The position numbers were made by a program, and so were the translations under genes. From Myxococcota bacterium (lineage in GTDB: Bacteria > Myxococcota_A > UBA9160 > UBA6930), in NCBI GenBank assembly GCA_965223415.1, contig OZ245002.1:2272001-2336000 (forward strand): a stretch of 64,000 nt of DNA, given 5' to 3'. Positions within the stretch are counted from its first letter, which is position 1. Each line of letters starts with the position of its first letter. The notes below the pieces were generated by a model. That model had not been told where the DNA came from, made no database searches, and worked only from the letters and a program-made list of their open reading frames with translations. Positions 9,333 through 32,615 of this stretch are shown one piece after another.

Positions 9333-9361
9333 TGGACAACCGAAATGAAACGTGTTCTAAT
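9333..9361 (+). promoter_or_regulatory. Sigma70-like promoter (TGGACA-17-TCTAAT) overlapped by KstR operator TGAAACGTGTTCTA (9346-9359)
   Basis: Exact match to TnnAACnnGTTnnA directly upstream of a KstR-like gene. Confidence 0.8.
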
Positions 9362-9368
9362 TCAGGCC

Positions 9369-10007
9369 GTGAGCCAGCCCCTCGAAGCGCCTGCGGCCAC
9401 CGGTCTGGCGGCCAGCCAGCTCCGCCGCATCCGCCGCATCGTCGACGCCGCCATCGAGCTGGCAGAGCAGGGCGGCTTCGACGGCGTGCGGCTGCGGGAC
9501 GTGGCCGAGAGCTCCGGCGTCGCCCTTGGCACCCTCTACAAGTACTTCCCGAGCAAGGAGGCGATCCTTCTCTACGCCGTCAACGAGGGCAACGAGGGGC
9601 TCGAGCGCCTGATGGTGGAGGAGCCGCCGCGGGGCGAAACCGCCGCGGAACGGGTCGCCGACTTCTTCGCGCGCGCCACGGGCACCTTCACGCGCCGGCC
9701 GAACTTCGCGCGGGCCGTCCTGCGCGCCATCGCCGCCTCGGACCAGGCGACCGCCGCCCAGCAGGCGGGCTTTCATCTTCGCATCGGACGGATGATCATC
9801 TCCGCGCTGCGCGGCGAGGCGCCTGACGTCTCGCGGCCGCTCAGCGAGACCATCGGCAGCGAGCGCGAGCAATCCATCGCCCTGATGCTGAACCACGTCT
9901 GGTTCGCGGCGCTGCTCGGCTGGTCGAGCGGGCTGCACAGCGCCGAGGCGGTCGCCGACCGCATGACCCAGGCCATCGATTTGATGCTCGGAGGAACCGC
10001 CCCATGA
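9369..10007 (+). CDS. kstR: TetR-family repressor, KstR-like
   Basis: HTH RDVAESSGVALGTLYKYFPSK and KstR-like C-terminus (HVWFAALLGW); GTG 9369 preferred because ATG 9345 lies in the operator. Confidence 0.82.
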   Translation: MSQPLEAPAATGLAASQLRRIRRIVDAAIELAEQGGFDGVRLRDVAESSGVALGTLYKYFPSKEAILLYAVNEGNEGLERLMVEEPPRGETAAERVADFFARATGTFTRRPNFARAVLRAIAASDQATAAQQAGFHLRIGRMIISALRGEAPDVSRPLSETIGSEREQSIALMLNHVWFAALLGWSSGLHSAEAVADRMTQAIDLMLGGTAP

Positions 10008-10468
10008 GTCAAGTGACCGAAGGCGCGCTCACTGCGCCCCACACGCTCCAGTACACGTACAAGCGTTCGCTGGGGCCGGTGCTCAGCCGCTTCTTCACCG
10101 GCATCCGGGATCGCAAGATCCTCGGCGCCAAGCGCGCCGATGGCACGGTGCTCGTCCCGCCCCGGGAGTACGACCCGGACACCGCGGCCGCCATCGACGA
10201 GCTGGTGGAGGTGGGCCAGAGCGGCGTGGTGAAGAGCTGGGCCTGGGTGTCCGAGCCGCGCAAGCAACAGCCCCTGGATCGTCCCTTCGCCTACGCGCTG
10301 ATCCAGCTCGAAGGTGCCGACACGGCCTTCCTGCACGTGGTCGACGCGGGCCGCGAGGACGCCATGCAGACTGGCATGCGCGTCGCGGCGAAGTGGGCCG
10401 ACGAGGCCACGGGTGCGATCACCGATCTCACTTTCGTTCCCGAGGGTGGGAAGAGGGAGGGTGCGTGA
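10004..10468 (+). CDS. DUF35/OB-fold protein (Rv3521 N-terminal half-like)
   Basis: YKRSLGPVLSRFF, VLVPPREYDP, PLDRPFAYALIQL. Confidence 0.85.
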   Translation: MSQVTEGALTAPHTLQYTYKRSLGPVLSRFFTGIRDRKILGAKRADGTVLVPPREYDPDTAAAIDELVEVGQSGVVKSWAWVSEPRKQQPLDRPFAYALIQLEGADTAFLHVVDAGREDAMQTGMRVAAKWADEATGAITDLTFVPEGGKREGA

Positions 10469-10974
10469 TGAGCGAAGCCACGAACGAGCGGGTCGAGCTG
10501 CTGCGCTGTCCCGTCGAGCTCGAGTACAACTACACCGCCGGGCGATCCGCCTCGCGCTTCCTGCGCGCCTTCGAGGAGGGCAAGCTGCTCGGCCAGCGCT
10601 GCCCCGTGGACGGCCGGGTCTACTTCCCGACCCGTGGTGCCTGTCCCCAGCACGGCGTGCCCATGGCCGACGGCGACGCGGTCGAGCTGCCGGACAAGGG
10701 CACCCTCGTCACCTACGCGATCGTGCGGGTGCCGTCGGAGAACATCCCCCTCGAGCTGCCCTACGTGGCCGTGCAGGTGCTGCTCGACGGGGCCGACACG
10801 GTGATGATGCACGTGCTCGGCGAGTGCGATCTCGAGAACGTCCACATGGGCATGCGCGTCGAGGCCAAGTGGAAGCCCAAGGAGGAGTGGGAGACCTCGG
10901 TGGGCAACATCCTCTACTTCGTTCCCTTGGACGAGCCGGACGCTCCCTACGACAGCTACAAGGAGCACATCTGA
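10468..10974 (+). CDS. DUF35 Zn-ribbon/OB-fold protein (Rv3521 C-terminal half-like)
   Basis: GQRCP..GRVYFPTRGACP, GMRVEAKW, EPDAPYDSYKEH. Confidence 0.85.
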   Translation: MSEATNERVELLRCPVELEYNYTAGRSASRFLRAFEEGKLLGQRCPVDGRVYFPTRGACPQHGVPMADGDAVELPDKGTLVTYAIVRVPSENIPLELPYVAVQVLLDGADTVMMHVLGECDLENVHMGMRVEAKWKPKEEWETSVGNILYFVPLDEPDAPYDSYKEHI

Positions 10975-12026
10975 TGAGAGACGTCGCCGTCGTCGCCTTC
11001 AGCCAGTCGCCCTCGATGCGCCGCGAGCCGAACCGCAACGAGGTCGAGATCCTGATCCCTGTGATCCAGGAGCTGCGCGAGAACGCCGGGATCACCAACG
11101 AGGACGTGGACTTCGTCTGCTCCGGCTCCAGCGACTACCTGGCCGGGCAGAGCTTCGCCTTCGTCGCCGGGCTCGACGCGGTGGGCGCCTGGCCGCCGGT
11201 GTGCGAGAGCCACGTCGAGATGGACGGTGCCTGGGCGCTCTACGAGGCCTGGGTGAAGATCCAGATGGGCTACGCGGACGTGGCCCTGGTCTACGGCTTC
11301 GGGAAGCCCTCGATGGGGGACCTGCCGCTCACCATGGCGCTGCAGCTCGATCCCTACTCGGTGATGCCGCTCTGGCCCGACGCGGTGAGCATCGCAGCGC
11401 TGCAGGCCCGACTGCTGCTGGATGGCGGGGTGGTCTCCGAGCGGGACATGGCCGAGGCCGCTGTTCGCGACCGGGCGAACGCCAAGGACAACCCGGCGGC
11501 CCAGGTGAAGGGCGACTTCAGCGCGGACCAGATCCTGGCGGAGCCGTATCTCGTCTCGCCGCTGCGCAAGCACGACTGCTCGCCCATCTCGGACGGCGCG
11601 GCGGCCGTGATCCTCGCCGCCGGCGACAAGGCAAAGGAGATCTGCAAGCGGCCGGCCTGGATCCGCGGCATCGAGCACATCTGCGAGCCGCAGGATCTCG
11701 GCGTACGCGACCTGCTGCGCTCGCGCTCGACGGAGATCGCCGCCGAGAAGGCGGGCGTCAGTGTCGGGAAGGTCGACGTGGCCGAGCTCTCGGCGCCCTT
11801 CAGCCACCAGGAGCTCCTGGTCGAGCGAGCGCTCGGGCTGGCTGGCGACACGAAGGTGAACCCGTCCGGCGGCGCCATGGCGGGCAACCCGCTCATGGCC
11901 GTCGGCCTCGCCCGGGTCGGCGAGGCGGCGCGCCGCGTCTGGGACGGAAGTGCGGACCGGGCGGTAGCTCACGCCACCTCGGGCCCGTGCCTGCAGCAGA
12001 ACCTCGTCTGCGTGCTGGAGGGCTGA
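10974..12026 (+). CDS. ltp4: SCP2-type thiolase-like aldolase, Ltp4-like
   Basis: CSGSSDYLAG, ESHVEMDGAWALYEAW, HATSGPCLQQNLV. Confidence 0.85.
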   Translation: MRDVAVVAFSQSPSMRREPNRNEVEILIPVIQELRENAGITNEDVDFVCSGSSDYLAGQSFAFVAGLDAVGAWPPVCESHVEMDGAWALYEAWVKIQMGYADVALVYGFGKPSMGDLPLTMALQLDPYSVMPLWPDAVSIAALQARLLLDGGVVSERDMAEAAVRDRANAKDNPAAQVKGDFSADQILAEPYLVSPLRKHDCSPISDGAAAVILAAGDKAKEICKRPAWIRGIEHICEPQDLGVRDLLRSRSTEIAAEKAGVSVGKVDVAELSAPFSHQELLVERALGLAGDTKVNPSGGAMAGNPLMAVGLARVGEAARRVWDGSADRAVAHATSGPCLQQNLVCVLEG

Positions 12027-12029
12027 GTC

Positions 12030-13187
12030 ATGGCAGAGCTCTGCGGAGTCATCGGAATCGGACAGACCCACTACGCCGCCAAGCGGCCCGAGCTCTCCAT
12101 GCCGGGCCTGCTGCGCGAGGCGGCCGAGCGGGCCCTCGAGGACGCGGACTGCACCTGGGCGGACATCGACGCGGTGGTGATCGGCAAGGCCCCCGACATG
12201 TTCGAGGGCGTGATGATGCCGGAGCTGTTCCTGAACGACGCCGTCGGCGGCGCCTACAAGCCGATGCTGCGCGTGCACACCGCGGGCAGCGTGGGTGGCT
12301 CGACCGGCATCGTGGCGGCCAGCCTGGTGCAATCGGGTATCCACGATCGCGTGCTCACCGTCGCCTACGAGAAGCAGAGCGAGTCGAACGCCACCTGGGC
12401 GCTCTCGATCGCGCTGCCCTTCTCGGTGGCCACGGTGGCCGGCGCCGGCGGCTACTTCGCGCCGCTGGTGCGCGGCTACATCCGCCGCTCCGGCGCGCCG
12501 GAGGACACGGGCATCCGCGTGGCGGTGAAGGACCGGCAGAACGCGCTCAAGAACCCGCTGGCGCACCTCCACCTCGAGGACATCAGCTTCGAGATGGTGG
12601 CCAACTCGCCGATGCTGTGGGATCCGATCCGCTACCTCGAGACGTGTCCGTCATCGGACGGGGCCTGCGCCATGGTGATGGCGAAGGAGAGCATCGCCCA
12701 GCAGAGCGCCAAGCCGGTGGCCTGGGTCCACGCCACCGAGATGCGCAGCGAGCCCACCATGTTCTCGGGCCGCGACCAGGTGATGCCCCAGGCGACCCTC
12801 GACAACGCCAAGTCTCTCTACAAGAAGGCCGGCATCCAGAACCCGCGGGAGGAGATCGACTGCGCCGAGATCTACGTCCCCTTCAGCTGGTTCGAGCCGA
12901 TGTGGATGGAGGGCATGCTCTTCGCCCCGACCAACGAGGGCTGGAAGATGACCTACGAGGGCGCCACGGCCCTGGACGGCGACCTGCCGGTGAACATGTC
13001 CGGCGGGGTGCTCTCGTCGAACCCGATCGGCGCCTCCGGCCTGATCCGCTTCGCCGAGGCAGCCCTCCAGGTACGCGGCATGGCCGGCGAGCACCAGGTC
13101 GACGGCGCCCGGAAGGCCCTCGGCCACGCCTACGGCGGCGGCTCTCAGTACTTCTCCACCTGGATCGTCGGCAGCCAGAAGCCCTAG
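12030..13187 (+). CDS. ltp3: SCP2-type thiolase-like aldolase, Ltp3-like
   Basis: GKAPDMFEGVMMPE, RVHTAGSVGGST, ETCPSSDGACA, GHAYGGGSQYF. Confidence 0.88.
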   Translation: MAELCGVIGIGQTHYAAKRPELSMPGLLREAAERALEDADCTWADIDAVVIGKAPDMFEGVMMPELFLNDAVGGAYKPMLRVHTAGSVGGSTGIVAASLVQSGIHDRVLTVAYEKQSESNATWALSIALPFSVATVAGAGGYFAPLVRGYIRRSGAPEDTGIRVAVKDRQNALKNPLAHLHLEDISFEMVANSPMLWDPIRYLETCPSSDGACAMVMAKESIAQQSAKPVAWVHATEMRSEPTMFSGRDQVMPQATLDNAKSLYKKAGIQNPREEIDCAEIYVPFSWFEPMWMEGMLFAPTNEGWKMTYEGATALDGDLPVNMSGGVLSSNPIGASGLIRFAEAALQVRGMAGEHQVDGARKALGHAYGGGSQYFSTWIVGSQKP

Positions 13188-13194
13188 GGAGTCG

Positions 13195-14325
13195 ATGGAC
13201 TTCGCGTTCTCGGAAGAGCAGGATGAGTTCCGCGAGATGCTGCGCCGCTTCTTCGAGGAGAAGGCGCCCAGCATCGAGGTGCGCCGGATGGCGGAGCGCC
13301 CGGAGGGCTTCGACCGGGCGCTGTGGGCGCAGATGGCCGAGGAGCTCGGGCTGCAGGGCGTGCACGTGCCCGAGGCCTACGGGGGGCAGGGCTTCGGCTT
13401 CCTGGAGCTCGGGATCGTGCTGGAGGAGATGGGCCGGGTGCTGCTGCCCGGGCCGTTCTTCGCCAGCAGCGTGCTCGCGACCGGCGCCATCCTGAACGCC
13501 GGTGCCGAGGAGCAGCGGGCGGCCCTGCTGCCCGCCCTGGCCGGCGGCGAGCGCATCGCGACCCTGGCGACCGAGGAGACGAAGAGCGCCTGGGACCCGG
13601 ACGCCATCCGCATGGAGGCCGCACCCGACGGCGACGGCTTCCGGCTCTCCGGCGCGAAGGAGCTGGTCCTCGCCGGCGACGTGGCGGACACGCTGATCGT
13701 CGCCGCCCGCCTGCCCGGCACGAGCGGCAGCGACGGCCTCACCCTGTTCGTCGTCGGCGGCGCCGACCCGGGCCTCAAGCGGACGCCCGAGGCCCCTCTC
13801 GACGCGACGCGCCGCCTCGCTCGCATCGAGCTCGACGGCGCGCGGGGCGAAGCCCTCGGCGTCCCCGGCGAGGCGGCCATGCCTCTCGCCCGCACCCTCG
13901 CCCAGGGCGCCATCGCCCTCGCCGCCGAGATGGTCGGCGGTGCCGCCCAGTGCCTCGACGCGGCCGTCGAGTACGCGAAGGTCCGCGTCCAGTTCGGCCG
14001 GCCTATCGGCACCTTCCAGGCCGTCAAGCACAAGGCCGCCGAGGTGCTCCTCGATCTCGAGTTGGCCCGCTCGGCCGCCTACTGGGCCTGGTGGGTTGCC
14101 GACGAGGACAAGGACGAGCTCTTCCAGGCCGCCTCCCTCGCCAAGGCCACCTGCGCCGACGCCTTCCACCACGCGGCCCGCGAGAACATCCAGATCCACG
14201 GCGGCATCGGCTTCACCTGGGAGCACGACGCGCACCTCTACTACAAGCGCGCGACCGCCAGCGACGCGCTGCTCGGCGACGCGGGGGAGCACCGACTGCG
14301 GTTGGCGGGGCTGCTGGGGGCCTAG
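13195..14325 (+). CDS. Acyl-CoA dehydrogenase family protein
   Basis: RVQFGRPIGTFQAVKH, QIHGGIGFTWEH. Confidence 0.92.
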   Translation: MDFAFSEEQDEFREMLRRFFEEKAPSIEVRRMAERPEGFDRALWAQMAEELGLQGVHVPEAYGGQGFGFLELGIVLEEMGRVLLPGPFFASSVLATGAILNAGAEEQRAALLPALAGGERIATLATEETKSAWDPDAIRMEAAPDGDGFRLSGAKELVLAGDVADTLIVAARLPGTSGSDGLTLFVVGGADPGLKRTPEAPLDATRRLARIELDGARGEALGVPGEAAMPLARTLAQGAIALAAEMVGGAAQCLDAAVEYAKVRVQFGRPIGTFQAVKHKAAEVLLDLELARSAAYWAWWVADEDKDELFQAASLAKATCADAFHHAARENIQIHGGIGFTWEHDAHLYYKRATASDALLGDAGEHRLRLAGLLGA

Positions 14326-14334: not shown

Positions 14335-14994
14335 TCAGCTCGCGAGTCGCGTCGTCACGTACTCCGCCAGCGCCCGGCGCGTCGTCTCCGGAATCGCCTC
14401 GTCGAACACGAGGCCCGTCCGATCCCCCGCGGTGTAGCTCGGCTGTGCCGGGATCTGGACCAGCCCCTGGTCGGCCAGCGGGAAGCACAGCTCGACGGGG
14501 GCATCCTCCTGCAGCGGGGACGTGCTCTGGAGCAGGCAGCCCTTCTCGGAGATCGAGCGGATGGCACCGGCCCAGCTCTCCGCGCCGTGGGTGGCGCGAG
14601 CCGGCAGCGCGTCCGCCACGCGCGGCACGCTCCGCGGGCGCGGCTCGAAGGCGGCCTGGAGCAGCTCGTAGACCGCAGCCAAGCGCGCACGCCGACGCAC
14701 CACGCCGATCACGAGGCTCTCGAGCCCGCTCCCCCGCAGTGCTGCGTCGCCCCGGGCCCCGGTCAGCAGGATCACCGGCAGGTCGTCGCGGTTGCTCAGC
14801 AGCTCCTCGGTCCGCCGGTCGTCCACGATGCGCAGGCGCGGCGCCAGCGGCCCGTTCTCGCCGTCCTGGCGGACGGCCGTCTTCAGGGAGACGAGGTTGT
14901 ATCCCAGCCGCGTCAGCGCCGTCAGCACTCCGGGCGCGAAGGCGCGGTCCGGCGCATGGACCGCCACGCTGGTGCGGGGTCGCGATTCGCCCAT
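14335..14994 (-). CDS. PilZ-like domain protein with receiver-like N-terminus
   Basis: RPRSVPR and SISEKG motifs, C-terminal GLVF; start at ATG 14994 inferred. Confidence 0.6.
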   Translation of the reverse strand: MGESRPRTSVAVHAPDRAFAPGVLTALTRLGYNLVSLKTAVRQDGENGPLAPRLRIVDDRRTEELLSNRDDLPVILLTGARGDAALRGSGLESLVIGVVRRRARLAAVYELLQAAFEPRPRSVPRVADALPARATHGAESWAGAIRSISEKGCLLQSTSPLQEDAPVELCFPLADQGLVQIPAQPSYTAGDRTGLVFDEAIPETTRRALAEYVTTRLAS

Positions 14995-15565
14995 GGCGGA
15001 CGTATCGGATGTCGCCTCTTGCGGTTGAGCGGGCTCGACCACGACACCGGACCGAAGCGCAGAGCGGAGCGGGAACAGACAATTCTGGGGTGAGAGCACC
15101 ACATGGGCGGCTTGGGACTCGCCCTGTTCTCGGCTCCCAGCGGGATGCAGCTCCGGTTTCCTTCGGTTTGATCCAGGCCATCCGCGCCGGGACGATCCGT
15201 TCCCAGCACGTCCCGACCCATCGAAGACGCCGGTCCCCCGCCGTACCTGCCTCGGGCCAGATCCGTTGAACGGCGGGCGGAACACGCCAGGCCACGAGAA
15301 CCCGCCCGGGGCGGGCGACCTCGCCAGAACGTCCCCGGCAGCCAAGGGAAGGACCCGAGCCGGGTTGCCGGCCTTCGGCGCCGCAATCAATCTCGAACTC
15401 GCCCCGGCGGGCCGCAAGGGCCTGAAGGGACGGGATTCCTCACGCACCGCGGGGTGGGGAGCGGGTACCATGGGAATGGTGATGCTGCCCCGGCCTGGCT
15501 CGGTGGTTGTGCACCTAACGACTGCCACGTGGGGCAATCTCCTTGGGCGGTGCGGGAGGAGACCC

Positions 15566-16360
15566 ATGGGCGACTCTGGGCAGGTGATCGCAAACGCGGC
15601 GGAGGTCTACGACGAGTTCTTTCTGCCGGCGCTCTTCGAGGCGTGGCCACCGGAGTTGATTTCCAGGGCACGAGTCGGCCCGGGAATGCGAGTTGTGGAT
15701 GTCGCTTGCGGGACGGGCGTTCTGGCAATCGAAGCAGGCAAGGCGACCCGACCGGGTGGGAGCGCGGTAGGGGTAGATCTCAACCCGGGAATGCTCATGG
15801 TTGCCCGCAGGAAGGATCCCAGTGTCGATTGGCAGGAAGCACCCGCCGAAGCTTTGCCTTTCGATTCCGACGAATTCGATGCAGCGCTCTGCCAGTTCGG
15901 GTTGATGTTCTTCCACGATCGCAACGCGGCCATTCGCGAAATGCTGAGGGTTCTCCGTCCCGGCGGCCGTCTGGCCATCGCCGTCTGGGATTCCCTCGAC
16001 AACACCCCTGGCTACCTCGCGATCACGCAGCTCCTTTCGCGTCTCTTCGGGGATGAGATCGCCGACCTTCTGAGAGCGCCCTACGTTCTCGGCGATGCCG
16101 AGAGGCTGAGCCGTCTTCTCGTCGAATCCGGCGTCCAGAAGCCCACGGTGTCTCGAGTTGCCGGCGAAGCGCGTTTCTCTTCGATCCGGTCTTGGATGCA
16201 CACGGATATTCGCGGCTGGACCCTTGCCGACAAGCTCGACGACGAGCAGTTCGAGCATCTCGTGAAGAGCGCAGAAGACGCGCTGAGTGACCTGGTTTCT
16301 GCGAATGGATCGGTCAGATTCGATCATGCGGCCCTGATCGCCACGGCGCAGAAACCGTAA
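15566..16360 (+). CDS. Class I SAM-dependent methyltransferase
   Basis: VDVACGTG, CQFGLMFF, LRVLRPGG; GGAGGAG RBS before ATG 15566. Confidence 0.92.
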   Translation: MGDSGQVIANAAEVYDEFFLPALFEAWPPELISRARVGPGMRVVDVACGTGVLAIEAGKATRPGGSAVGVDLNPGMLMVARRKDPSVDWQEAPAEALPFDSDEFDAALCQFGLMFFHDRNAAIREMLRVLRPGGRLAIAVWDSLDNTPGYLAITQLLSRLFGDEIADLLRAPYVLGDAERLSRLLVESGVQKPTVSRVAGEARFSSIRSWMHTDIRGWTLADKLDDEQFEHLVKSAEDALSDLVSANGSVRFDHAALIATAQKP

Positions 16361-16543
16361 CGCGCGCTCGCAACAAGGTGTCGCTGCGAACCTCCACCTG
16401 TACATCACGAGGCGCGAGGAATCCGTCCTGGTCGAGCGGTTCGGGGGGGCTATCTGGCGTACTGTAGGCAGGTCCCCCGATGGGGTCTTGGCAGGCCCCG
16501 CCCACCGCGCAGCTGACGTCAGGCCCTGGCCATTGGAGTGCTT

Positions 16544-17356
16544 GTGCTCGTTCTCTACGACAACCCGTTCAGTCCGTTCGCTCGAAAGGTCAGGATGGTG
16601 CTGCGATTCAAGGGCTTGGAGCACCGCTCGGTCGATGCCCTGGCGCTGGAGGAGCACGATCACCTCGTCGCCGTCAACCCCCGCGCCGAGGTGCCCGTCC
16701 TGGTCGACGGCGATGTGGTCGTGGCCGATTCGTCCGACATCGTCTCCTACCTGGAGGATCGATTCCCGGAGCCCGCAGTCCTTCCGGCCGGCCCCGAGCT
16801 GCGGGCGAAGGCGCGTCGGTGGCAGCGAGTCGCCGACACGACATTCGATTCCATCGTCCACGATATCTCCATCTGGATCTGGCCTACCCACCGTCGATCG
16901 GACCCACCGCCGGAAGGGCTGCTCGATGCGGGCCGCCGGGAGCTGCACGAGCTCCTCAGCGAGCTGGAGCGCTCGATCGACGCCTCCGGCTTCGTATGCG
17001 ATCGGCTGTCGATCGCGGACTTCTCGCTCTTTCCACACATTTCTTCACTGAAGCCACTGAACGTCCTCCTCGATGAGACCGCTCATGCGAAGCTCCTTCG
17101 TTGGAATCGACAGATGCGGACCGAGACGGCCGTGCGCGAGGACCTCGAATACGTGAAGCGAAGCGCGATCGAGAAGTTCGGCTCCGGTCGATCGCCCTAC
17201 GAGGGGGAGAAGATCGTCTGGCGAGGCGACCGGATCGAGTGGCTTCTCGCTCACGGCTACCGGGATTGGTTCTTCGCGGAGCTGGCGAGCGGTCGCGCCG
17301 TCGTTCCAAAGGGCGGTCGCGGGCCCGCACGACCCCCGCAAGCGCAGCGCTCCTAG
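16544..17356 (+). CDS. Glutathione S-transferase family protein
   Basis: SPFARKVR, NPRAEVPVL, DSSDIVSYL, SIADF. Confidence 0.9.
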   Translation: MLVLYDNPFSPFARKVRMVLRFKGLEHRSVDALALEEHDHLVAVNPRAEVPVLVDGDVVVADSSDIVSYLEDRFPEPAVLPAGPELRAKARRWQRVADTTFDSIVHDISIWIWPTHRRSDPPPEGLLDAGRRELHELLSELERSIDASGFVCDRLSIADFSLFPHISSLKPLNVLLDETAHAKLLRWNRQMRTETAVREDLEYVKRSAIEKFGSGRSPYEGEKIVWRGDRIEWLLAHGYRDWFFAELASGRAVVPKGGRGPARPPQAQRS

Positions 17357-17700: not shown

Positions 17701-17719
17701 CCCGCCTCCCGGCGCCCGG

Positions 17720-18529
17720 CTAGCGCCCCTTGAACACCGGCGGCCGCTTCTCCAGGAACGCCCGGGGCCCCTCCGCGGCGTCCTCCGAGCTCATCACCTG
17801 CATGCCGTACCTCTGCTCGATCGCGAACGCCTCCTCCTCCGGCAGCGTCTCGGTCTCGCGCAAGGTGGCGACGATCGCCTTCACGGCGAGGGGCCCATTG
17901 GCGGCGATGCGGTCGGCGATCTCGCGGGCCTTCGCCAGGGCCTGGCCGTTCGGGACGACGTGGTTCACGAGGCCGAGCTCAAAGGCGCGTCGGGCCGGGA
18001 GGTCCTCGCCGGCGATCAGCATCTCGGCAGCCACCGCATAGGGGATCTGGCGGCGCAGGCGCACGGCGGAGCCGGCCATCGGGAACAGGCCGCGCTGCAC
18101 CTCGGTGACGCCGAACTTCGCGTCCTCGCCGGCGACGCGGATGTCGGTGCCCTGGAGGATCTCGGTGCCCCCGGCCCGGGCGAAGCCCTCGGCGGCGAGG
18201 ATCACGGGCTTGGCTGGGCGGTAGGTCTTGAGCCACGCGCCGTAGATCACGTGGCCCTCCTTCATCACCCGCTCCATGTACTCGTTCTCCGGCTTGCCGG
18301 TGCGGAGCTTGCCGATCTCCGAGAGGTCCATGCCGGCGCAGAAGGTGTCGCCGTTGCCCGTGAGGATGCCGACGCGCAGGTCTTCGTCTTCGTCGAGCTG
18401 CACCCAGGAGTCATACAGCCGGCACATCACTTCGCAGTTGACGGCATTTCTCTTTTCGGGTCGGTTCAGGGTGACCGTGAGGACGTGGCCGTCCTTCTCG
18501 ACGACGACGGCGGGCTCTCCAGCGGGCAT
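17720..18529 (-). CDS. echA19: Enoyl-CoA hydratase, EchA19-like
   Basis: AGGTEILQGTDIRVAGE, GSAVRLRRQIPY, ANGPLAV recalled as close to M. tuberculosis EchA19. Confidence 0.82.
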   Translation of the reverse strand: MPAGEPAVVVEKDGHVLTVTLNRPEKRNAVNCEVMCRLYDSWVQLDEDEDLRVGILTGNGDTFCAGMDLSEIGKLRTGKPENEYMERVMKEGHVIYGAWLKTYRPAKPVILAAEGFARAGGTEILQGTDIRVAGEDAKFGVTEVQRGLFPMAGSAVRLRRQIPYAVAAEMLIAGEDLPARRAFELGLVNHVVPNGQALAKAREIADRIAANGPLAVKAIVATLRETETLPEEEAFAIEQRYGMQVMSSEDAAEGPRAFLEKRPPVFKGR

Positions 18530-18540: not shown

Positions 18541-19728
18541 TCAGCTCCGGGGCAGCTGGTCGAAAGGGATCTTGCGGTCGCGGCTGGCCTCGCGGGGCAT
18601 GCCGAGGACGCGTTCGGCGCACACGTTCTTCTGCACCTCGCTGGTGCCGCCGGCGATGTGGAAGGCCGGCGCGAAGAGGTACTCGTTCTGCCAGTAGCCC
18701 GGGCGCAGGAGCGCCTTCGGGCCGAGGGCGCGCATCGCCAGGGCGTTGGCCTTCGTCATCATGCGTGCGAGCGCGAGCTTCATCACCGACGACTCGGAGG
18801 TGGGGATCACGCCACGACCGAGCTTCGAGACCATGCGGGCGTTCAGCAGCTCGAGGCAGCGGAGCTGCGTGTACACCTCCGCCAGCTCCTCGCGCTGGGT
18901 GGCCGAAGGTCGGCCGTCGCTCTCCTCGAGCACCAGCGCCTTCAGCTCGCCCCAGCGAAGCAGGTTCGAGAGCCCGCCCATCGCCATGCGCTCGTTCATC
19001 AGCGTGGTCTGGGTGACGGACCAACCGCCGTTCAGGGGGCCGAGGCGCGCCGAGTCGGGCACGCGCACGTCGTTCAGGAACACCTCGTTGAAGTGGGACT
19101 CGCCGGTCATCTCGACGAGGGGCCGCACCTCGAGGCCCGGGGTGCTCATGTCGAGCAGGAAGTAGCTGATGCCCTCGTGCTTCGGCACGCTCGGATCGGT
19201 GCGCGCGATCAGGATGCCGAAGTGGTTGTGCTGGGCGCCCGAGCACCAGGTTTTCTGGCCGTTCACGATCCAGTCGTCGCCGTCGCGCACGGCGCGGGTG
19301 GCCAGGCCCGCCAGGTCCGAGCCGGCGCCGGGCTCGCTGAAGAGCTGGCACCAGGTCTCGTCGGCCTGGAGGAGCGGCTGGAGGAAGCGCTCCTGCTGCT
19401 GCTTCGTCCCGTGGGCGATGATCGTCGGCCCGACCATGCCGATGCCCACCGCGAGCATGGAGTGGCCGACACCGCGCCGGTTCAGCTCCTCGTTCCAGAT
19501 GATCTGCTCGATGGGCCCCTTGCCGCGGCCCCCGTAGGCCTCGGGCCAGGTGATGGCCCCCCAGCCGTGGGAGGCCAGGGTCTTCTGCCAGCCCTTGTGC
19601 TGCTCGAAGACCAGCTCCTGGTCGTCGCCGGAGGTGTAGCTGCCGAACTCCTCGGGGGCGTGCTCGTCCAGGAAGGCCACCGCCTCGGCCCGGAAGGCCG
19701 CCTCGGTCGCGGAGTCGTCGAAATCCAT
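18541..19728 (-). CDS. Acyl-CoA dehydrogenase
   Basis: WCQLFSEPGAGSDLAGL, FNEVFL, IAGGTSEVQKN. Confidence 0.92.
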   Translation of the reverse strand: MDFDDSATEAAFRAEAVAFLDEHAPEEFGSYTSGDDQELVFEQHKGWQKTLASHGWGAITWPEAYGGRGKGPIEQIIWNEELNRRGVGHSMLAVGIGMVGPTIIAHGTKQQQERFLQPLLQADETWCQLFSEPGAGSDLAGLATRAVRDGDDWIVNGQKTWCSGAQHNHFGILIARTDPSVPKHEGISYFLLDMSTPGLEVRPLVEMTGESHFNEVFLNDVRVPDSARLGPLNGGWSVTQTTLMNERMAMGGLSNLLRWGELKALVLEESDGRPSATQREELAEVYTQLRCLELLNARMVSKLGRGVIPTSESSVMKLALARMMTKANALAMRALGPKALLRPGYWQNEYLFAPAFHIAGGTSEVQKNVCAERVLGMPREASRDRKIPFDQLPRS

Positions 19729-19759
19729 GGGAGGCACCTCGCCGGCGAAGGGCCAAAAT

Positions 19760-24288: not shown

Positions 24289-24321
24289 GGCGGCCCAGGG
24301 TATCACTCGCCCCGGAGGAGC

Positions 24322-27116: not shown

Positions 27117-29075
27117 CTAGGCGTCTTCGACGTCGAGGACGACCGAGGTGTAGAGGCTCGGATCCGGGAAGGTCGAGAAGTTCGGCTCGCCGCGTGCCGC
27201 GGCCAGGTCGGGCAGGGGCTCGGCGCCGCTCGCCTCCAGCAGCTCGGTCACGAAGCGGCGGAAGAGGTCCAGGGCCTCGCCATCCCCCGGCAGCAGGCGG
27301 CGCGGATCGAACTGGTCGCTGCGCAGGCGGATGACCTGAAGTGTTTCCGCCTCCATGTCGCGCCAGTTCAGCGCCAGGTCGATGAGCAGCACCGCCCGCT
27401 CGCCCAGCCCGTGCACCGCACCGGCTGCGATCGCCTGGATGCGCCCGTAGGCGAGGGTGTGCCGCCGCCCGCTGCGCCGGAGCACGAGGCCTTCCCCCGA
27501 AAGCTCCACCGGGATGCCTTCCACGACCTTGGCGTCCCGCCAGCGGGGGCCGCTGCCGAGCTCGGGGGCGATCGGCTCCACCATGGGATCCGTCTCCTCC
27601 GAAGGCGCCTCGAAGGCCGGAGGCTGCGGCTCCGCACGCAGCGGCTCCGAGACCGGCTCCGTCGCGAGATCGATCGGCTCGTCCAGCTCGATCGCGCGCG
27701 CGTCGATGCCCTGCCAGCCCTCGCTCCGCGCGTCCGGGTCCGGTGCCTCCGCCCGCGCCTTGGCCAGATCGAGCGTGCCGAGATCCGCCTGGATGTCGCG
27801 CCGGCGCTCTTCGGGAAGCGCGTCCCAGGCCAGCACGCGGCGCGCGGCTTCGCCGGCCAGCTCCGGCGCCCGCCGCCGCGCCACTTCGTAGAAGCGCAGC
27901 GCCAGACCCGGCTCCAGGTCCTCGGCGCCACGACCGATCGCGTGCTCCAATGCGCGCCGCGCTTCGAGCGGACGATCCCGCTCGTCCAATGCCCGCGCCA
28001 CCGTCAGCAGCACGCGCGGGTCGCACTCCGCATCGGGGACCAACAGGGTGAGCTCGCACCAGTAGTCGGAGGCCGCCTGGAGCTCGCCGCTCGCGATCCA
28101 GCGCTCGATCTGGCGGGTCAGCTCCGTGGCCATCTCCTCGGGACGCTGCAACGCCGCGGCCGCGTCCCAGGTCGCGATGACCACGTCCGGATCTTCCGGG
28201 AACTGCCGCATCGCACGGCGCAGGCGCTCGTAGGCTTCCTCGAAGCGCCCCTCCTCCCGCAGAGCGTGCACCTCCTCCACGACGGGGTTCCCCTGGGCGA
28301 GGGTGAGCTTCGCCTCCAGGCTGGATTGGAGGTAGCGCGTCTCGATCCCCCCGACGCGGATCACGCCGGCGAAGACCGCGCCGTAGAGGAAGCCGCCGAC
28401 GTGCGCCCAGTAGGCGACGCCGCCCTGCTGTCCCATCGTGTCCGCGAGGTTCGCGTTCAGGAGCTCGGTCGCGAACCAGAAGGGCAACATCAGCCAGGCC
28501 GGTGCCTCGAAGGTGCCCATCCTGATCCAGATGAAGTAGAAGTAGCGGAGCTTGCTCTTGAACAGACGGACGAGGAAGGCGCCCATCACCGCGGCGATGG
28601 CGCCCGAGGCGCCCACCAGCGGGATGTCCGCGTTGGCCGGCGACATCGCCGCGAAGAACAGGGCGGCGAAGACGCCGCCGGTCAGGTAAAGGCCGAGAAA
28701 GACCGGCCGCCCCCAGCGATCCTCGATCGGCGGCCCCAGCAGGAAGAGCAGCAGCATGTTGCCGAGCAGGTGCAGCCAGCCGGCGTGCATGAACTGGTGG
28801 CTGAAGACGCTCGAGATCCGCACGTCCGAGGGCACGAGCCCGAAGCGGTCGTAGGGCGTGGGCGGGAGCTCGAACTCCACCTCGTCGCCGTCGGCCGCCG
28901 CGGCCTCCGCCCGCTCCATCTCCACCTGCACCCGCGCCTCCCATTCCGGGAGGGAGCCGTCGCAGGAGGTCGTGCCGGTACCGAAGAGGGTCAGGAGGCA
29001 CAGAGCCATCAGGGTGAAGGTTACCCAGGGGAGGCGCCGGACCTCCGACTCGTCGTGGCCGATCGGGAGCAGCAC
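27117..29075 (-). CDS. Rhomboid intramembrane serine protease with long helical/TPR-like C-terminal extension
   Basis: FMHAGWLHLLGNM, VGASGAI, AYWAHVGG. Confidence 0.88.
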   Translation of the reverse strand: MLLPIGHDESEVRRLPWVTFTLMALCLLTLFGTGTTSCDGSLPEWEARVQVEMERAEAAAADGDEVEFELPPTPYDRFGLVPSDVRISSVFSHQFMHAGWLHLLGNMLLLFLLGPPIEDRWGRPVFLGLYLTGGVFAALFFAAMSPANADIPLVGASGAIAAVMGAFLVRLFKSKLRYFYFIWIRMGTFEAPAWLMLPFWFATELLNANLADTMGQQGGVAYWAHVGGFLYGAVFAGVIRVGGIETRYLQSSLEAKLTLAQGNPVVEEVHALREEGRFEEAYERLRRAMRQFPEDPDVVIATWDAAAALQRPEEMATELTRQIERWIASGELQAASDYWCELTLLVPDAECDPRVLLTVARALDERDRPLEARRALEHAIGRGAEDLEPGLALRFYEVARRRAPELAGEAARRVLAWDALPEERRRDIQADLGTLDLAKARAEAPDPDARSEGWQGIDARAIELDEPIDLATEPVSEPLRAEPQPPAFEAPSEETDPMVEPIAPELGSGPRWRDAKVVEGIPVELSGEGLVLRRSGRRHTLAYGRIQAIAAGAVHGLGERAVLLIDLALNWRDMEAETLQVIRLRSDQFDPRRLLPGDGEALDLFRRFVTELLEASGAEPLPDLAAARGEPNFSTFPDPSLYTSVVLDVEDA

Positions 29076-29117: not shown

Positions 29118-32100
29118 TCAGACCCGCCGCCGGAACGCCTCCAGCAGCTCCTGCTCCTTGCTGCGGACCTGCTCCAGCTGCTGGTCCTTCACCGTGCCGT
29201 AGCCCCGGATTCCCTCCGGAAGGCTGGCGATCTCCACTGCGAGGGCGTGGTTCTCGGCGTTCAGGCCGTCGACCAGCTCCTGGAGCCGGTGCTCGTAGTC
29301 CCGCGGCAGCTGGCGCTCGAGGCGGCGGTCCGCGGTCCAACCGAAGGGATCGAAGGGCGTGCCGCGCAGGAAGGCGAAGCGCCGGATCGTCTTCCACACG
29401 CTCAGCATGAACCAGGCGGGGAAGGTCCACTTGGGCGCGCGGCCCGTGTCCGGATCGCGGGGGATCAGGAAGGCCGGCACGAACTGCATGGTCACGTGGA
29501 ACGCGAGCTGCGGGTCGCCGTCGAACTGCTGGCGGACCTGCTCCAGGAACGCGCCGTCCGTGTAGAGGCGGGAGACCTCGTACTCGTCCTTGTAGGCGAG
29601 CAGCTTGAAGTGGTAGCGGGCGACGGCCCGCGCCAGCTCGTCGCGGCCGAGCTGGCTCTTCTCGCGCTCGGCCACCTTGCGCACGAACGTCTCGTAGCGG
29701 CGGGCGTAGCGGGCGTTCTGGTACTCGGTGAGGAAGGGGATGCGGGTCGCGAGCAGCTCGTCCAGGGTGCGCTCCGCGGGTGCCGACTCCGCGCCCCGCA
29801 AGAGCGGCTTCACCGCGGCCTCGACCTTCGCCGGCTCGTGGGCCGCGAGCCGGCCCCAGGCGAAGGAGCGCCGATTGAGCTCGATGCCGCGCCCGTTCAG
29901 CTGGATGGCGCGATCCAGGGCCTCGCGGCTCACCGGGATGCGGCCCAGCTGCCAGGCGAAGCCCAGCAGGAACATGTTGGAGGCGATGGTGTCGCCGAGC
30001 AGGGCCTGGGCCCAGGGCGTGGCGGGCACGAAGTGCGCGTGGCCGTCGCCCACGGCGCTGCGGATCGCCTCCTCCATCGCGTCGGGCGTGAGATCGAGGT
30101 CCGAGTCGAGGGCGAACTCGAAGGTGGGGGCGACGTGATGGTTCATCACGGCCGTGGTTCCCGGCGCGAGCTTCGGCAGGTGCTCGGGATTGGTGGCGAC
30201 GACCGGGTCGCAGCCGATCAGCACGTCGGCGCCGCCCACGCCGATGCGCGTCGCGTGGATCTCCTCCGGCGCCCGCGCGATGCGCACGTGGCTCGAGACC
30301 GGGCCGTTCTTCTGGGCGAGGCCCGTCACGTCGAGCTCCGACGCGCCCTTGCCTTCGAGGTGCGCCGCCATGCTCAGGATGGCGCCGACGGTGACCACGC
30401 CCGTGCCTCCGATGCCGGCGAGGAGCACGTCGAAAGGCGCGTCGAGCTCCGGGGGGGTCGGCTCCGGCAGGTCGGCGAAGACGCCGTCGTCGCCAGTGTC
30501 CGTCCTGGGCGCCACCGCCTTGCGCAGGGTGCCGCCGGTCACCGAGACGAAGCTCGGGCAGTAGCCCTGGACGCAGGAGTAGTCCTTGTTGCAGCTGCTC
30601 TGGTTGATGCGACGCTTGCGGCCGAACTCCGTCTCCAGCGGCTCGATGGAGATGCAGTTCGATTGCACGCTGCAATCGCCGCAGCCCTCGCAGACGCGCT
30701 CGTTGATCACGATGCGGCGGTCCGGGTCCGGGAACTCGCCGCGCTTGCGCAGGCGCCGCGCCTCGGCGGCGCAGGTCTGGTCGTAGATCAGGGCGGACAC
30801 GCCGGAGAGCTCTCGCAGCTCCTTCTGCACCTGGCCCAGCTTCGCGCGGTCGTGGACGGTCACGCCACTCGGGAACAGGCCGCGCGCGTAGCGCTCCGGC
30901 TCGTTGGAGACGACGGCGATCCGCTTCACCCCCTCGGCCGAGAGCTGCCGCGCGATCTCCGGGCAGGTGATCTCGCCCTCCATCGGCTCGCCCTCGATGG
31001 GCTGCCCCCCGGTCATCGCCACCGCGCCGTTCACCAGGATCTTGAAGGTGATGTTGACGTCGGCGGCCACGCAGGCGCGGATCGACAGAAGGCCCGAGTG
31101 GAAGTAGGTGCCGTCGCCCATGTTCTGGAAGACGTGGGGCAGGTCGATGAAGGGCGCCTGGCCGATCCAGTTGGCGCCTTCGCCGCCCATGTGGGTGGCG
31201 CCGAAGGTGCGGCGCTCCGGGAAGAAGGCGGCCATGCCGTGGCAGCCGATGCCGCCGAAGGCGATCGAGCCGTCGGGCAGCTGGGTCGAGGTGTTGTGGG
31301 GGCAGCCGGAGCAGAAGCTCGGCATGCGGCTCAGCTGGCCGGGCGGCGTCACCGCCGGCGGCGTCGGGGCCGGGCGCAGGAGCCGCGCCTGCTCCGGCAG
31401 CCGCCGCGCGAGCCAGCTCCGGATCGCCTCCCGCACCGCCGCCGGCGCCAGCTCCCCGGTCCGCGAGAGAAGCGGCGTCCCGTCGTCCTCGTGCTTGCCC
31501 GCGAGCCGCGGCCGCTCGCGCTCGTTGTAGAGCAGGTGCGCCAGCTGCTCCTCGACGATCGGGCGCTTCTCCTCGACGACGAGCACGTCTTCGCGCCCCC
31601 GGCAGAAGGCCCGCGCCGCCTCCGGCTCGAGGGGCCAGGGCATCGCCACCTTGTAGATCGCCAGGCCGAGATCGCGGGCCCGGCCTTCGTCCAGGCCGAG
31701 CTCGTCCAGAGCCTGGCGCACGTCCAGGTAGGCCTTGCCGGTGGTGACGATGCCGAGGCGCCGCGCCTCGCCCTCCCAGATCGTGCGATCGAGGCCGTGG
31801 GCGCGCACGAAGGCCTGGGCTGCGGGCAGCTTCACCTGGTAGAGCTGCTGCTCGATCAGGACCAGGGTGTTGGTCATCGTCACGTGGTGGTCGTGGGCCG
31901 GGAAGGCGAAGCCCGGGTCGACCCGGTGCGCCCGCTCCGGCCCCACCTCGACGGAGGCGCCGCTGTCGACGGTGTCGGTCAGGCACTTCATCCCGACCCA
32001 GCAGCCGGAGTAGCGGGAGAGCGCCCAGCCATGGAGCCCGAAGTCCAGATACTCCTGCACGTTCGACGGGTTCAAGATCGGGACGCCCGCGTGGATGAGC

Positions 32101-32591
32101 GCCTGCTCGCTCTGGTGTGCGATCGAGGAGGACTTCGCGCCCGGGTCGTCGCCACACAGAGCCAACACACCGCCGTGTCGCGCCGTGCCCATGTAGTTGC
32201 CGTGCTTGATCGGGTCCATCGAGCGGTCGACGCCGGGGCCCTTGCCGTACCAGATCGCGAACACACCGTCGTGTCGGGCCGTCGCCTGGAGCGAGGCCTG
32301 CTGGGAGCCCCACACCGCCGTGGCGGCCAGGTCCTCGTTCACGCCCGGCTCGAAGCGCACCTGGTGCTGCTCGAGCAGCTCCTTGGCCTGCCACAACGCC
32401 ATGTCGTAGGTGCCGAGCGGCGAGCCCCGGTAGCCGGAGATGAAGCCCGCCGTGTCGAGGCCGGCGGCCCGGTCGCGTTGGCGCTGGAGCATCGGCAGAC
32501 GCACGAGCGCCTGGACGCCGGACAGGTACACCCGGCCCGTCTCCCGGGTGTAGCGGTGCTCGAGCTCATAGCTCTGGTCGACGGGGGGCAT
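29118..32591 (-). CDS. Fused indolepyruvate:ferredoxin oxidoreductase family protein
   Basis: SGYRGSPLG, WYGKGPGVDR, FCSGCPHN, MGDGTYFHSG, CEGCGDC, GIGGTGV, AYKDEYEV. Confidence 0.93.
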   Translation of the reverse strand: MPPVDQSYELEHRYTRETGRVYLSGVQALVRLPMLQRQRDRAAGLDTAGFISGYRGSPLGTYDMALWQAKELLEQHQVRFEPGVNEDLAATAVWGSQQASLQATARHDGVFAIWYGKGPGVDRSMDPIKHGNYMGTARHGGVLALCGDDPGAKSSSIAHQSEQALIHAGVPILNPSNVQEYLDFGLHGWALSRYSGCWVGMKCLTDTVDSGASVEVGPERAHRVDPGFAFPAHDHHVTMTNTLVLIEQQLYQVKLPAAQAFVRAHGLDRTIWEGEARRLGIVTTGKAYLDVRQALDELGLDEGRARDLGLAIYKVAMPWPLEPEAARAFCRGREDVLVVEEKRPIVEEQLAHLLYNERERPRLAGKHEDDGTPLLSRTGELAPAAVREAIRSWLARRLPEQARLLRPAPTPPAVTPPGQLSRMPSFCSGCPHNTSTQLPDGSIAFGGIGCHGMAAFFPERRTFGATHMGGEGANWIGQAPFIDLPHVFQNMGDGTYFHSGLLSIRACVAADVNITFKILVNGAVAMTGGQPIEGEPMEGEITCPEIARQLSAEGVKRIAVVSNEPERYARGLFPSGVTVHDRAKLGQVQKELRELSGVSALIYDQTCAAEARRLRKRGEFPDPDRRIVINERVCEGCGDCSVQSNCISIEPLETEFGRKRRINQSSCNKDYSCVQGYCPSFVSVTGGTLRKAVAPRTDTGDDGVFADLPEPTPPELDAPFDVLLAGIGGTGVVTVGAILSMAAHLEGKGASELDVTGLAQKNGPVSSHVRIARAPEEIHATRIGVGGADVLIGCDPVVATNPEHLPKLAPGTTAVMNHHVAPTFEFALDSDLDLTPDAMEEAIRSAVGDGHAHFVPATPWAQALLGDTIASNMFLLGFAWQLGRIPVSREALDRAIQLNGRGIELNRRSFAWGRLAAHEPAKVEAAVKPLLRGAESAPAERTLDELLATRIPFLTEYQNARYARRYETFVRKVAEREKSQLGRDELARAVARYHFKLLAYKDEYEVSRLYTDGAFLEQVRQQFDGDPQLAFHVTMQFVPAFLIPRDPDTGRAPKWTFPAWFMLSVWKTIRRFAFLRGTPFDPFGWTADRRLERQLPRDYEHRLQELVDGLNAENHALAVEIASLPEGIRGYGTVKDQQLEQVRSKEQELLEAFRRRV

Positions 32592-32601
32592 GGACAAGAA
32601 T

Positions 32602-32615
32602 TAGAACATGTTCTA
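32602..32615. promoter_or_regulatory. KstR operator, perfect palindrome TAGAACATGTTCTA
   Basis: TnnAACnnGTTnnA in a 60-bp divergent intergenic gap. Confidence 0.82.

Follow-up and report, generated by a model that had tools for sequence, protein, structure and literature searches.

Operator sites and the genes behind them

The window analysed here, a stretch of 64,000 nucleotides of contig OZ245002.1, carries a gene for a TetR-family regulator resembling KstR and three exact copies of the operator of mycobacterial KstR. When the window was searched with the pattern TNNAACNNGTTNNA, matches of the core TnnAACnnGTTnnA were found at three positions (n = 3), whereas 100 dinucleotide-preserving shuffles averaged 0.04 matches, gave at most 1 and never reached three. 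The sites are the following:

9346..9359, plus strand: operator site 1, TGAAACGTGTTCTA; exact match, 9 nt upstream of the TetR start codon
19760..19773, minus strand: operator site 2; its minus-strand reading is TGAAACGTGTTCTA, then ATT as in site 1
32602..32615, no strand: operator site 3, the perfect palindrome TAGAACATGTTCTA; exact match, between divergent genes

All three sites are intergenic and lie in gaps of 76, 97 and 60 nt, with a GC content of 0.45 (9293-9368), 0.63 (19738-19834) and 0.58 (32592-32651), the window as a whole having 0.704. An uninterrupted run of 19 bases (AA, the 14-mer and ATT) is identical between site 1 and site 2 read as its reverse complement, and a GTTCTA-ATT continuation is common to sites 1-3 when each is read toward the nearest gene that it precedes. 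Tolerating one mismatch brought the number of matches to 7 against 2.53 expected; the 4 additional ones, at 932 (gene of a short-chain dehydrogenase/reductase, SDR), 12882 (ltp3-like gene), 29968 and 32062 (both in the oxidoreductase gene at site 3), were considered noise at chance level because all are inside coding sequence. When 19 other intergenic gaps of the window were scanned with up to two mismatches, no operator was found in 18, and the single two-mismatch match, in the unassigned gap 51013-51875, is taken as chance. The KstR motif was defined by Kendall et al. 2007 (PMC1995591). The M. tuberculosis sites described there include those at Rv3520c (a luciferase-like monooxygenase, LLM)/Rv3521 (upstream of ltp4-ltp3), Rv3515c/Rv3516 (echA19), Rv1894c and fadE genes, and a site that overlaps the -10 region of kstR.

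Site 1 precedes an operon in which the TetR gene is the first cistron, followed by two genes for DUF35 proteins with an oligonucleotide/oligosaccharide-binding (OB) fold, an ltp4-like gene, an ltp3-like gene and an acyl-CoA dehydrogenase gene:

9369..10007, plus strand: KstR-like TetR-family repressor, 212 amino acids; start GTG 9369; Pfam TetR_N and TetR_C_20
10004..10468, plus strand: DUF35/OB-fold protein a (DUF35a), ChsH2-C type; Pfam OB_ChsH2_C; 57% identity to the N-terminal half of a Tsukamurella OB-fold protein
10468..10974, plus strand: DUF35/OB-fold protein b (DUF35b), zinc ribbon; Pfam OB_ChsH2_C and zf-ChsH2; TGATG overlap at both ends
10974..12026, plus strand: Ltp4-like thiolase-fold protein, lipid-transfer protein subfamily; PRK07937 535.5 bits, cut-off 419
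12030..13187, plus strand: Ltp3-like thiolase-fold protein; PRK08313 658.8 bits, cut-off 514
13195..14325, plus strand: acyl-CoA dehydrogenase, last gene of the operon; Pfam acyl-CoA dehydrogenase domains; 16 of 80 related loci hold a homologue with 50% identity or more

Gene calls relied on codon-position GC, then on Pfam and NCBIfam checks. The TetR start codon is probably GTG 9369, which aligns with the MSSP... start of 19 relatives. The ATG at 9345 given in the mechanical list of open reading frames (ORFs) was rejected: it would overlap the operator, and the relatives start at the equivalent of GTG 9369. Successive junctions of the operon show ATGA or TGATG overlaps, and the ATGA overlap of the DUF35a start with the TetR stop points to translational coupling. 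The thiolase-fold proteins exceed the NCBIfam cut-offs of the Ltp3 and Ltp4 subfamilies and are directly preceded by two OB_ChsH2_C proteins, their expected partners; they are 65% (Ltp3-like) and 55% (Ltp4-like) identical to the Tsukamurella thiolases at the ltp3 and ltp4 positions. The Rv3521-type OB-fold/DUF35 partner is a single protein of 309 residues in Tsukamurella and is split here into two translationally coupled genes (10004-10974), DUF35a being the counterpart of its N-terminal half and DUF35b 46% identical to its C-terminal half.

Two genes read away from site 2 on the minus strand:

18541..19737, minus strand: acyl-CoA dehydrogenase, reading away from site 2; 42% identity to the N-terminal half of a FadE34-like protein
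17720..18529, minus strand: EchA19-like enoyl-CoA hydratase, second gene behind site 2; ATG 18529 preceded by AGGAG

The best PDB matches of the hydratase are EchA19 (6wyi, E 5e-82, and 4f47). It meets PRK07799 (352.8 bits, cut-off 316), falls below the NCBIfam EchA19 equivalog cut-off (347.4 against 400 bits) and is 53% identical to the Tsukamurella enoyl-CoA hydratase at the echA19 position. On the plus side of site 2 lies a serine-palmitoyltransferase/BioF-like pyridoxal phosphate (PLP) enzyme (19835-21019; 507 bits against a model cut-off of 640), which is not a steroid gene; this arrangement is retained in one related locus (L004), and an acyl-CoA dehydrogenase takes its place in another (L002).

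Site 3 lies between divergent genes:

29118..32591, minus strand: fused indolepyruvate/2-oxoacid:ferredoxin oxidoreductase (IOR), 1157 residues; PRK13030 1587 bits; Pfam POR and DUF6537
32652..33491, plus strand: F420-type LLM-class oxidoreductase; TTG start with AGGAGG 6 nt upstream; TIGR03619 235.5 bits, cut-off 166.9
33488..33859, plus strand: small SnoaL-like/ketosteroid-isomerase-related protein; Pfam SnoaL_2; ATGA-coupled to the LLM gene

The ATG of the IOR gene at 32591 sits 10 nt from site 3, and the TTG of the LLM gene lies 37 nt beyond it on the plus side. Judged by this position the IOR gene appears to be operator-controlled, and an operator-linked IOR has no counterpart known to us in the KstR regulon as published. 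The SnoaL-like protein matches TIGR02096 weakly (27.9 bits, cut-off 97). A single ORF listed mechanically at 32621-33859 was discarded as a wrong frame: it had no PDB match and a SnoaL match at its tail only, the real genes being 32652-33491 and 33488-33859.

A first-pass annotation of this DNA had described the three sites, placed them in AT-rich promoter gaps, noted the 19 bases shared by two of them and the location of one on the promoter of the KstR-like gene, and recognised the motif as the mycobacterial KstR operator. Each of these points was borne out, as was the presence of homologues of KstR-controlled genes behind the sites, since Rv3521-, ltp4-, ltp3- and echA19-like genes follow sites 1 and 2. 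Its wording needs one correction on this point: the plus-side gene at site 2 is no steroid gene.

The regulator and its operator in related genomes

Searches by sequence and by structure gave KstR as the closest characterised protein. The best PDB matches of the TetR are M. tuberculosis KstR entries, namely 5cw8 (E 4.6e-18), 3mnl, 5aqc and 5ua2 (about 5e-18), aligned at full length (residues 20-217 against 14-199); a Rhodococcus RHA1 TetR and then Mce3R (helix-turn-helix only) rank below them. An AlphaFold model made from a 20-sequence alignment (predicted local distance difference test score 91.1) has as its top Foldseek match DNA-bound KstR (5fmp; template modelling (TM) score 0.94 on the target, root-mean-square deviation 1.4 Å, 28% identity). 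Ranks 1-11 are all KstR but one RHA1 TetR (TM on the target 0.87-0.95), and the second-tier folds include Thermus FadR (3ang, TM 0.74) and Bacillus FadR (3whc, TM 0.66). The KstR equivalog NF033703 is also the top NCBIfam match (117.3 bits, with the runner-up at 37 bits). A HMMER pass over 1.84 billion cluster representatives returned 7381 relatives at E<=0.001, 593 at E<=1e-10 and 42 at E<=1e-30. When 75 full-length representatives (50% clusters), chosen from the 150 listed, were scanned with NCBIfam, 74 had the KstR model as their sole match (74-269 bits), and no representative scored 280 or more. Some JGI auto-annotations already apply the name "cholesterol catabolism regulator" to relatives of this TetR.

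In a plasmid collection (72,556 records), the 8 TetR matches at E<=1e-8 were confined to Actinobacteria. The best of them, annotated kstR and 35.9% identical, is a Tsukamurella record that bears a steroid cluster. In that record the exact motif precedes the OB-fold-ltp4-ltp3 operon, an LLM gene, an acyl-CoA dehydrogenase pair, hsaE and a cytochrome P450/fadA5 unit. Identities between window and Tsukamurella proteins are 65% for Ltp3, 63% for a FadA5-like protein, 57% for DUF35a, 55% for Ltp4 and 53% for the EchA19-like hydratase; lower values were obtained for an SDR (47%), DUF35b (46%), the FadE34 half (42%) and KstR (36%). From the shared operator and targets it follows that the same pairing exists in two phyla, with the repressor as the most diverged part. 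The 14-mer of site 3 is also found 109 nt before kstR in Nocardia farcinica. The divergent fadE34 orthologue used as a synteny criterion by Kendall et al. 2007 is absent at the window TetR, which has a same-strand DUF2254 gene upstream; an SDR gene lies there in relatives.

At least 80 genomes of species level contain a relative of the TetR, with 240 stretches of the genome collection confirmed, and 80 loci totalling 1.263 Mb, many of which stop at contig edges, were compared. The operator motif occurs 115 times in these loci against 2.05 expected (maximum 4; 20 first-order Markov simulations), and 76 of the sites, from 74 of the 80 loci, fall within -200 to +60 of the start of the TetR match. 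The sites are thus real and enriched, they are conserved together with the repressor in 74/80 loci, and homology and synteny hold. The proposal that repressor, operator and side-chain genes are conserved together outside Actinobacteria was upheld by these Myxococcota-type loci. Homologues at least 45% identical to the Tsukamurella proteins were found for the OB-fold protein in 52/80 loci, for the ltp4-like protein in 47/80 and for the ltp3-like protein in 42/80, mostly directly behind the TetR gene.

Alignment of the TetR-promoter sites gave the consensus GGACA-N7-TGAAACgTGTTctAAT, with GGACA conserved 8-12 nt before the operator. The distance from the operator to the first in-frame start codon is 6-14 nt in 67 of 74 loci (most commonly 8-10 nt), and the spacing of 10 nt between site 3 and the IOR start at 32591 is similar. 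GGACA(A) may represent a -35 element and TCTAAT a -10 element, in which case the operator would span the spacer and the -10 box. With 6-14 nt between operator and start codon, this reading would imply leaderless mRNAs, and it suggests operator-overlapped leaderless promoters for these repressors.

Away from the TetR promoter there are 39 sites, for which 44 flanking ORFs were selected by codon bias, the rest being discarded as likely shadow frames. By Pfam, these comprise 22 acyl-CoA dehydrogenases, 7 AMP-binding proteins, 3 DUF35 proteins, 3 enoyl-CoA hydratases, 2 nitronate-monooxygenase-like proteins, 1 aminotransferase and 6 others or without match. Orthologues of the acyl-CoA dehydrogenase of site 2 adjoin an operator in L002, L004, L053, L056, L068, L075 and L079. 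Of 27 scanned genes divergent from TetR, 8 encode LLM oxidoreductases, 6 encode SDRs and 3 encode acyl-CoA ligases, the other 10 being miscellaneous or unassigned. The LLM genes are those of L057, L060, L061, L064-L066, L070 and L071, and the L061 protein, the only one scored, is a member of the Rv3520c subfamily, with 455.6 bits against a cut-off of 335. A candidate KshA/KshB pair at a motif-like site of L072 was rejected, as the site is inside an ORF for an FNR-type reductase and no Rieske protein is found among 11 nearby ORFs. When 12 window proteins were searched against the 80 loci by tblastn (identity of 50% or more across half or more of the query), no match was obtained near TetR for the IOR, the LLM protein encoded from 32652, the acyl-CoA dehydrogenase pair at 35979/37173, the MaoC pair, the FAD protein, the P450 or a CoA-transferase.

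Host lineage and other genes of the window

The host is an uncultured Myxococcota-type ("Deltaproteobacteria") genome and not an actinobacterium. Positions 1-20868 of the window are collinear, at 77-82% nucleotide identity, with four independent metagenome-assembled genomes (MAGs) labelled "Deltaproteobacteria" or "bacterium" (L001-L004). The window-specific insertions with respect to these are 7745-9292, which is the DUF2254 membrane protein gene, and approximately 14971-17732, which holds the end of a PilZ gene, a methyltransferase gene, a glutathione S-transferase gene and a GNAT fragment. All 80 related loci, from a collection of species-representative genomes, are Myxococcota-type MAGs and none is actinobacterial. 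Their main labels are Deltaproteobacteria, Myxococcota, Myxococcales and Polyangiaceae; "bacterium", Proteobacteria, Thermodesulfobacteriota, Desulfobacterales, Spirochaetales/Spirochaetaceae, Binatia and Gammaproteobacteria are in the minority. The TetR gene shares one contig of 5,833,097 bases with a ClpP gene 11 kb away, and the closest named relatives of both are from MAGs called "Deltaproteobacteria bacterium", "Myxococcota bacterium" and "bacterium". GC content is uniform along the window (0.67-0.74). Synteny in the MAGs, the labels of the loci, the relatives of ClpP and the even GC content together show that the host is not actinobacterial and that the contig is not chimeric here; the opposite outcomes are among those that would have undone the first-pass annotation. 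The PEP-CTERM gene which that annotation took as a mark of a diderm host is indeed present. The protein scores just below threshold (Pfam PF07589 19.5 bits, gathering cut-off 20.7, E 0.001), no exosortase was seen in the window, and the gene is compatible with a diderm host yet a weak argument alone.

Further genes of the window were recorded as follows:

3-530, plus strand: FadA5-like thiolase, 3' part; 63% identity to a Tsukamurella "steroid 3-ketoacyl-CoA thiolase"; operator not in view
563-1471, plus strand: SDR at the Hsd4A position; 47% identity to the SDR neighbouring the Tsukamurella thiolase; operator not in view
2916-4445, 4442-4975 and 5561-6094: heavy chain, MauE and light chain of a methylamine dehydrogenase-like cluster
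33952..34659, minus strand: putative PEP-CTERM protein; C-terminal VPEP, hydrophobic stretch and basic tail
35979..38993, plus strand: heteromeric-type acyl-CoA dehydrogenase pair and enoyl-CoA hydratase; no upstream operator at up to two mismatches

The first gene of the pair at 35979-38993 has 4x28 as its best PDB match (E 7.8e-59), and its partner is short. Also present are a MaoC pair, CoA-transferases, a KstD-related FAD protein, further hydratases and a P450 closest to CYP130, CYP125-type enzymes and vitamin D hydroxylases. F420-type LLM-class oxidoreductases are encoded three times in the window of this non-actinobacterial genome (1476-2501, 32652-33491 and 34972-35889). The methylamine dehydrogenase-like cluster (2916-6094) lies just upstream of steroid-like genes. 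Between the operator-controlled units there are genes for a CehA/McbA-type metallohydrolase with a CarboxypepD_reg-like stretch (21676-24306) and for a rhomboid-domain protein of 652 residues (27117-29075), both unrelated to the operator system. In the segments 38994-40611 (1.6 kb) and 62150-63409 (1.3 kb) no ORF has a family match or a convincing codon bias.

Interpretation and comparison with known systems

Combined, these results make it probable that a Myxococcota-type lineage possesses a KstR-like TetR which, through the 14-bp operator of actinobacterial KstR, controls side-chain enzymes acting on a substrate that is likely a sterol or sterol-like. The controlled enzymes resemble most closely the actinobacterial set that cleaves C24-branched sterol side chains, which makes a sterol, or a sterol-like acyl-CoA of the branched alicyclic type, the most likely substrate. 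According to PMC6273163 (citing Wilbrink 2012), Ltp3 and Ltp4 are aldol-lyases required for branched but not for straight sterol side chains, FadD19 is required for degradation of beta-sitosterol (C-24 branched) but not of cholesterol, and EchA19 is non-essential.

DNA binding, repression, the ligand and the promoter anatomy are what we infer beyond this, as follows. Located between the conserved GGACA and the TetR start codon, the operator would be bound by a TetR dimer that blocks transcription initiation of its own operon. The same protein would block the acyl-CoA dehydrogenase/EchA19-like operon at site 2 and, at site 3, both the IOR-type oxidoreductase and the divergent F420-LLM-SnoaL pair. 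With KstR as the model, the C-terminal domain of TetR may bind the pathway substrate as its CoA thioester and free the DNA, and derepression would then open a module for cleavage of branched side chains.

Several observations weigh against this interpretation, some of which concern the regulator itself. Its identity to true KstRs is just 28-36%, and at 117.3 bits it misses the 280-bit cut-off of NF033703, which the Tsukamurella KstR used as control exceeds (306 bits). A tree of 107 rows from a quick IQ-TREE search, covering the window TetR, 74 representatives, two actinobacterial KstRs and the TetRs of 30 loci out of the 80, is midpoint-rooted without outgroup, has Shimodaira-Hasegawa-like approximate likelihood ratio (SH-aLRT) support only, and splits at 99% SH-aLRT into clades of 67 and 40. 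The larger one contains the window TetR with the low-scoring representatives and every one of the 30 Myxococcota-type TetRs, the smaller one both actinobacterial KstRs and every high-scoring representative, so that in this quick midpoint-rooted tree the window TetR does not group with bona fide KstR. KstR is the top match but, given the score below cut-off and the split of the tree, the regulator is better framed as KstR-like than as KstR proper, and on these sequence grounds it is a member of a sister subfamily rather than a KstR equivalog. The early identification as KstR was therefore right as to the best PDB, fold and NCBIfam match and too strong as to equivalence. The remaining observations concern the sites and targets. 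An exact site near TetR is absent in 6 of the 80 loci, one of which (L040) has merely 3 upstream bases, and 6 of the 7 AMP-binding flanking ORFs are matched by their C-terminal part only, so that those sites are probably intragenic. The -35/-10 reading proposed above stays tentative because a sigma-70 consensus scan called a promoter at none of the 3 operator sites of the window. Within the window, the operator is missing, even with two mismatches allowed, from five other promoter regions of steroid-like type (steroid-like operons lacking one lie at 35979, 40612, 49834 and 58840), and no mce4, kshA, hsaC or other ring-opening genes were seen in its 64 kb. What had been called a KstR regulon is thus borne out for three operator-bearing promoters, seen in 64 kb of a 5.83-Mb contig, and does not extend to the other steroid-like operons of the window.

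A regulon for general lipid or branched acyl-CoA beta-oxidation, of FadR/PsrA type and with no role in sterol metabolism, would account for part of these observations. The TetR would then sense ordinary or isoprenoid-type acyl-CoAs, and the Ltp/DUF35 aldolases would work on another branched substrate; we judge this the less likely reading, though a serious competitor. Such a regulon would fit the operator-adjoining genes of relatives, mostly generic acyl-CoA dehydrogenases, hydratases and ligases, the window without ring-opening or mce4 genes, the four steroid-like operons outside operator control, the place of the regulator in a KstR sister clade below the equivalog cut-off, and the fatty-acyl-CoA-binding FadRs among the second-tier fold matches; the KstR regulon itself was initially termed "lipid degradation" (PMC1995591). 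However, the operon is specifically of the DUF35-ltp4-ltp3 kind and 46-65% identical to an actinobacterial steroid-cluster copy with the same operator, the site-2 hydratase has EchA19 as its closest solved structure (E 5e-82), and genes for a FadA5-like thiolase, an SDR at the Hsd4A position and a 4x28-like acyl-CoA dehydrogenase are located in the same 64 kb. The stronger statement, that this lineage, uncultured and distributed globally, degrades sterol side chains with actinobacterial-type enzymes under a KstR sister clade that has kept an identical operator, is put forward tentatively, as a possibility we would not yet bet on; the sterols concerned would perhaps be C24-branched phytosterols, algal sterols or Myxococcota's own sterols.

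Two explanations in which the locus has no bearing on this lineage fared worse. F420-type LLM enzymes are typical of Actinobacteria, and the similarity of the enzymes to actinobacterial ones, up to 65%, is unusually high across phyla, as would be expected if the block were actinobacterial DNA brought in by chimeric assembly, by contamination or through very recent transfer. The agreement of four independently assembled MAGs in this gene order, with 77-82% nucleotide identity, TetR-ltp operons in dozens of Myxococcota-type species out of 80, the uniform GC content (0.67-0.74), the presence of TetR and ClpP on one contig of 5,833,097 bases and the fact that the TetRs form their own clade, with actinobacterial plasmid-collection records at most 36% identical, largely refute this explanation, which we consider highly improbable. 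That the three sites are functionless chance palindromes could be argued from the shortness of the motif, in which 8 bases are specified, but three sites were found where 0.04 were expected and 0/100 shuffles gave as many, all are intergenic and two share 19 identical bases; above all, chance is refuted by the conservation of a site at the TetR promoter, seen in 74/80 loci, and its probability is negligible.

Aerobic steroid catabolism and its control by KstR have been treated as actinobacterial traits, the proteobacterial version being separately regulated. In a full-text literature search no description joining KstR with Myxococcota was found, the matches for KstR with Deltaproteobacteria were irrelevant as judged from titles and abstracts, and the motif string was found in actinobacterial work only. 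Term searches of a 2016 comparative-genomic survey (PMC4810484) returned neither Deltaproteobacteria nor "myxo", and KstR/KstR2 in actinobacterial context only; those of a 2018 metagenomic survey (PMC5790920) returned no KstR, Deltaproteobacteria or "myxo", and degraders of the 9,10-seco type are described in the latter as restricted to Actinobacteria and Proteobacteria. In the reviews and surveys consulted, KstR is treated for actinobacteria alone, with no word of Deltaproteobacteria or Myxococcota. Myxococcota are reported also to make sterols (10.1101/2024.11.01.621555). The co-occurrence of a KstR-like repressor, the exact operator and Ltp3/Ltp4/EchA19-type enzymes across many uncultured diderm genomes, a set closely resembling the mycobacterial control of cholesterol catabolism, suggests that sterol breakdown of this kind extends beyond the known bacterial groups. 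Should the substrate indeed be a sterol, a new phylum of sterol degraders would enter marine and soil carbon cycling, the question of sterol turnover would arise in a phylum that itself makes sterols, and the system would offer a natural experiment in TetR-operator co-evolution (29-36% protein identity against an unchanged 14-bp site). On the stronger statement put forward above, aerobic sterol catabolism would reach beyond Actinobacteria and Proteobacteria, the KstR operator code would exceed the clade of KstR proteins in age or mobility, and the spacing of 6-14 nt would give leaderless repressor mRNAs, which would be unusual for this phylum.

The operator and the target logic are known from KstR (Rv3574/MSMEG_6042; Mycobacterium, Rhodococcus and Nocardia); what differs here is the protein clade, the operon design and the phylum. 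The window protein shares with KstR the TetR fold and a TetR_C_20-type ligand domain. As in the KstR regulon, the operator core TnnAACnnGTTnnA lies in the regulator's own promoter, overlapping the promoter region, an arrangement of autoregulation, and operators precede genes of the Rv3521-ltp4-ltp3, echA19, acyl-CoA dehydrogenase and F420-LLM types. In contrast to KstR, the window TetR heads an ltp operon, is not divergent from fadE34 and lacks the mce4 genes that come after kstR in Tsukamurella; the predicted targets include an IOR-type oxidoreductase, the host is a Myxococcota-type diderm, and three promoters in 64 kb carry the operator whereas several steroid-like operons are outside its control. 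The operon is distinct in design, with the repressor joined to the ltp genes, a split OB-fold gene and 6-14 nt between operator and start codon. In comparison with the Ltp3/Ltp4 aldol-lyase system (Rhodococcus rhodochrous; Rv3521-Rv3523), made from genes alone, the order OB-fold, ltp4, ltp3 and the KstR-type operator upstream are alike; the split OB-fold partner, the TetR gene at the front of the operon, the acyl-CoA dehydrogenase gene at its end and the lack of a divergent fadD19-type ligase gene at the operon set the window apart. Thermus thermophilus FadR and Bacillus subtilis FadR/YsiA are likewise TetR repressors of beta-oxidation genes that are released by acyl-CoA, but their similarity to the window TetR in structure and sequence is far below that of KstR.

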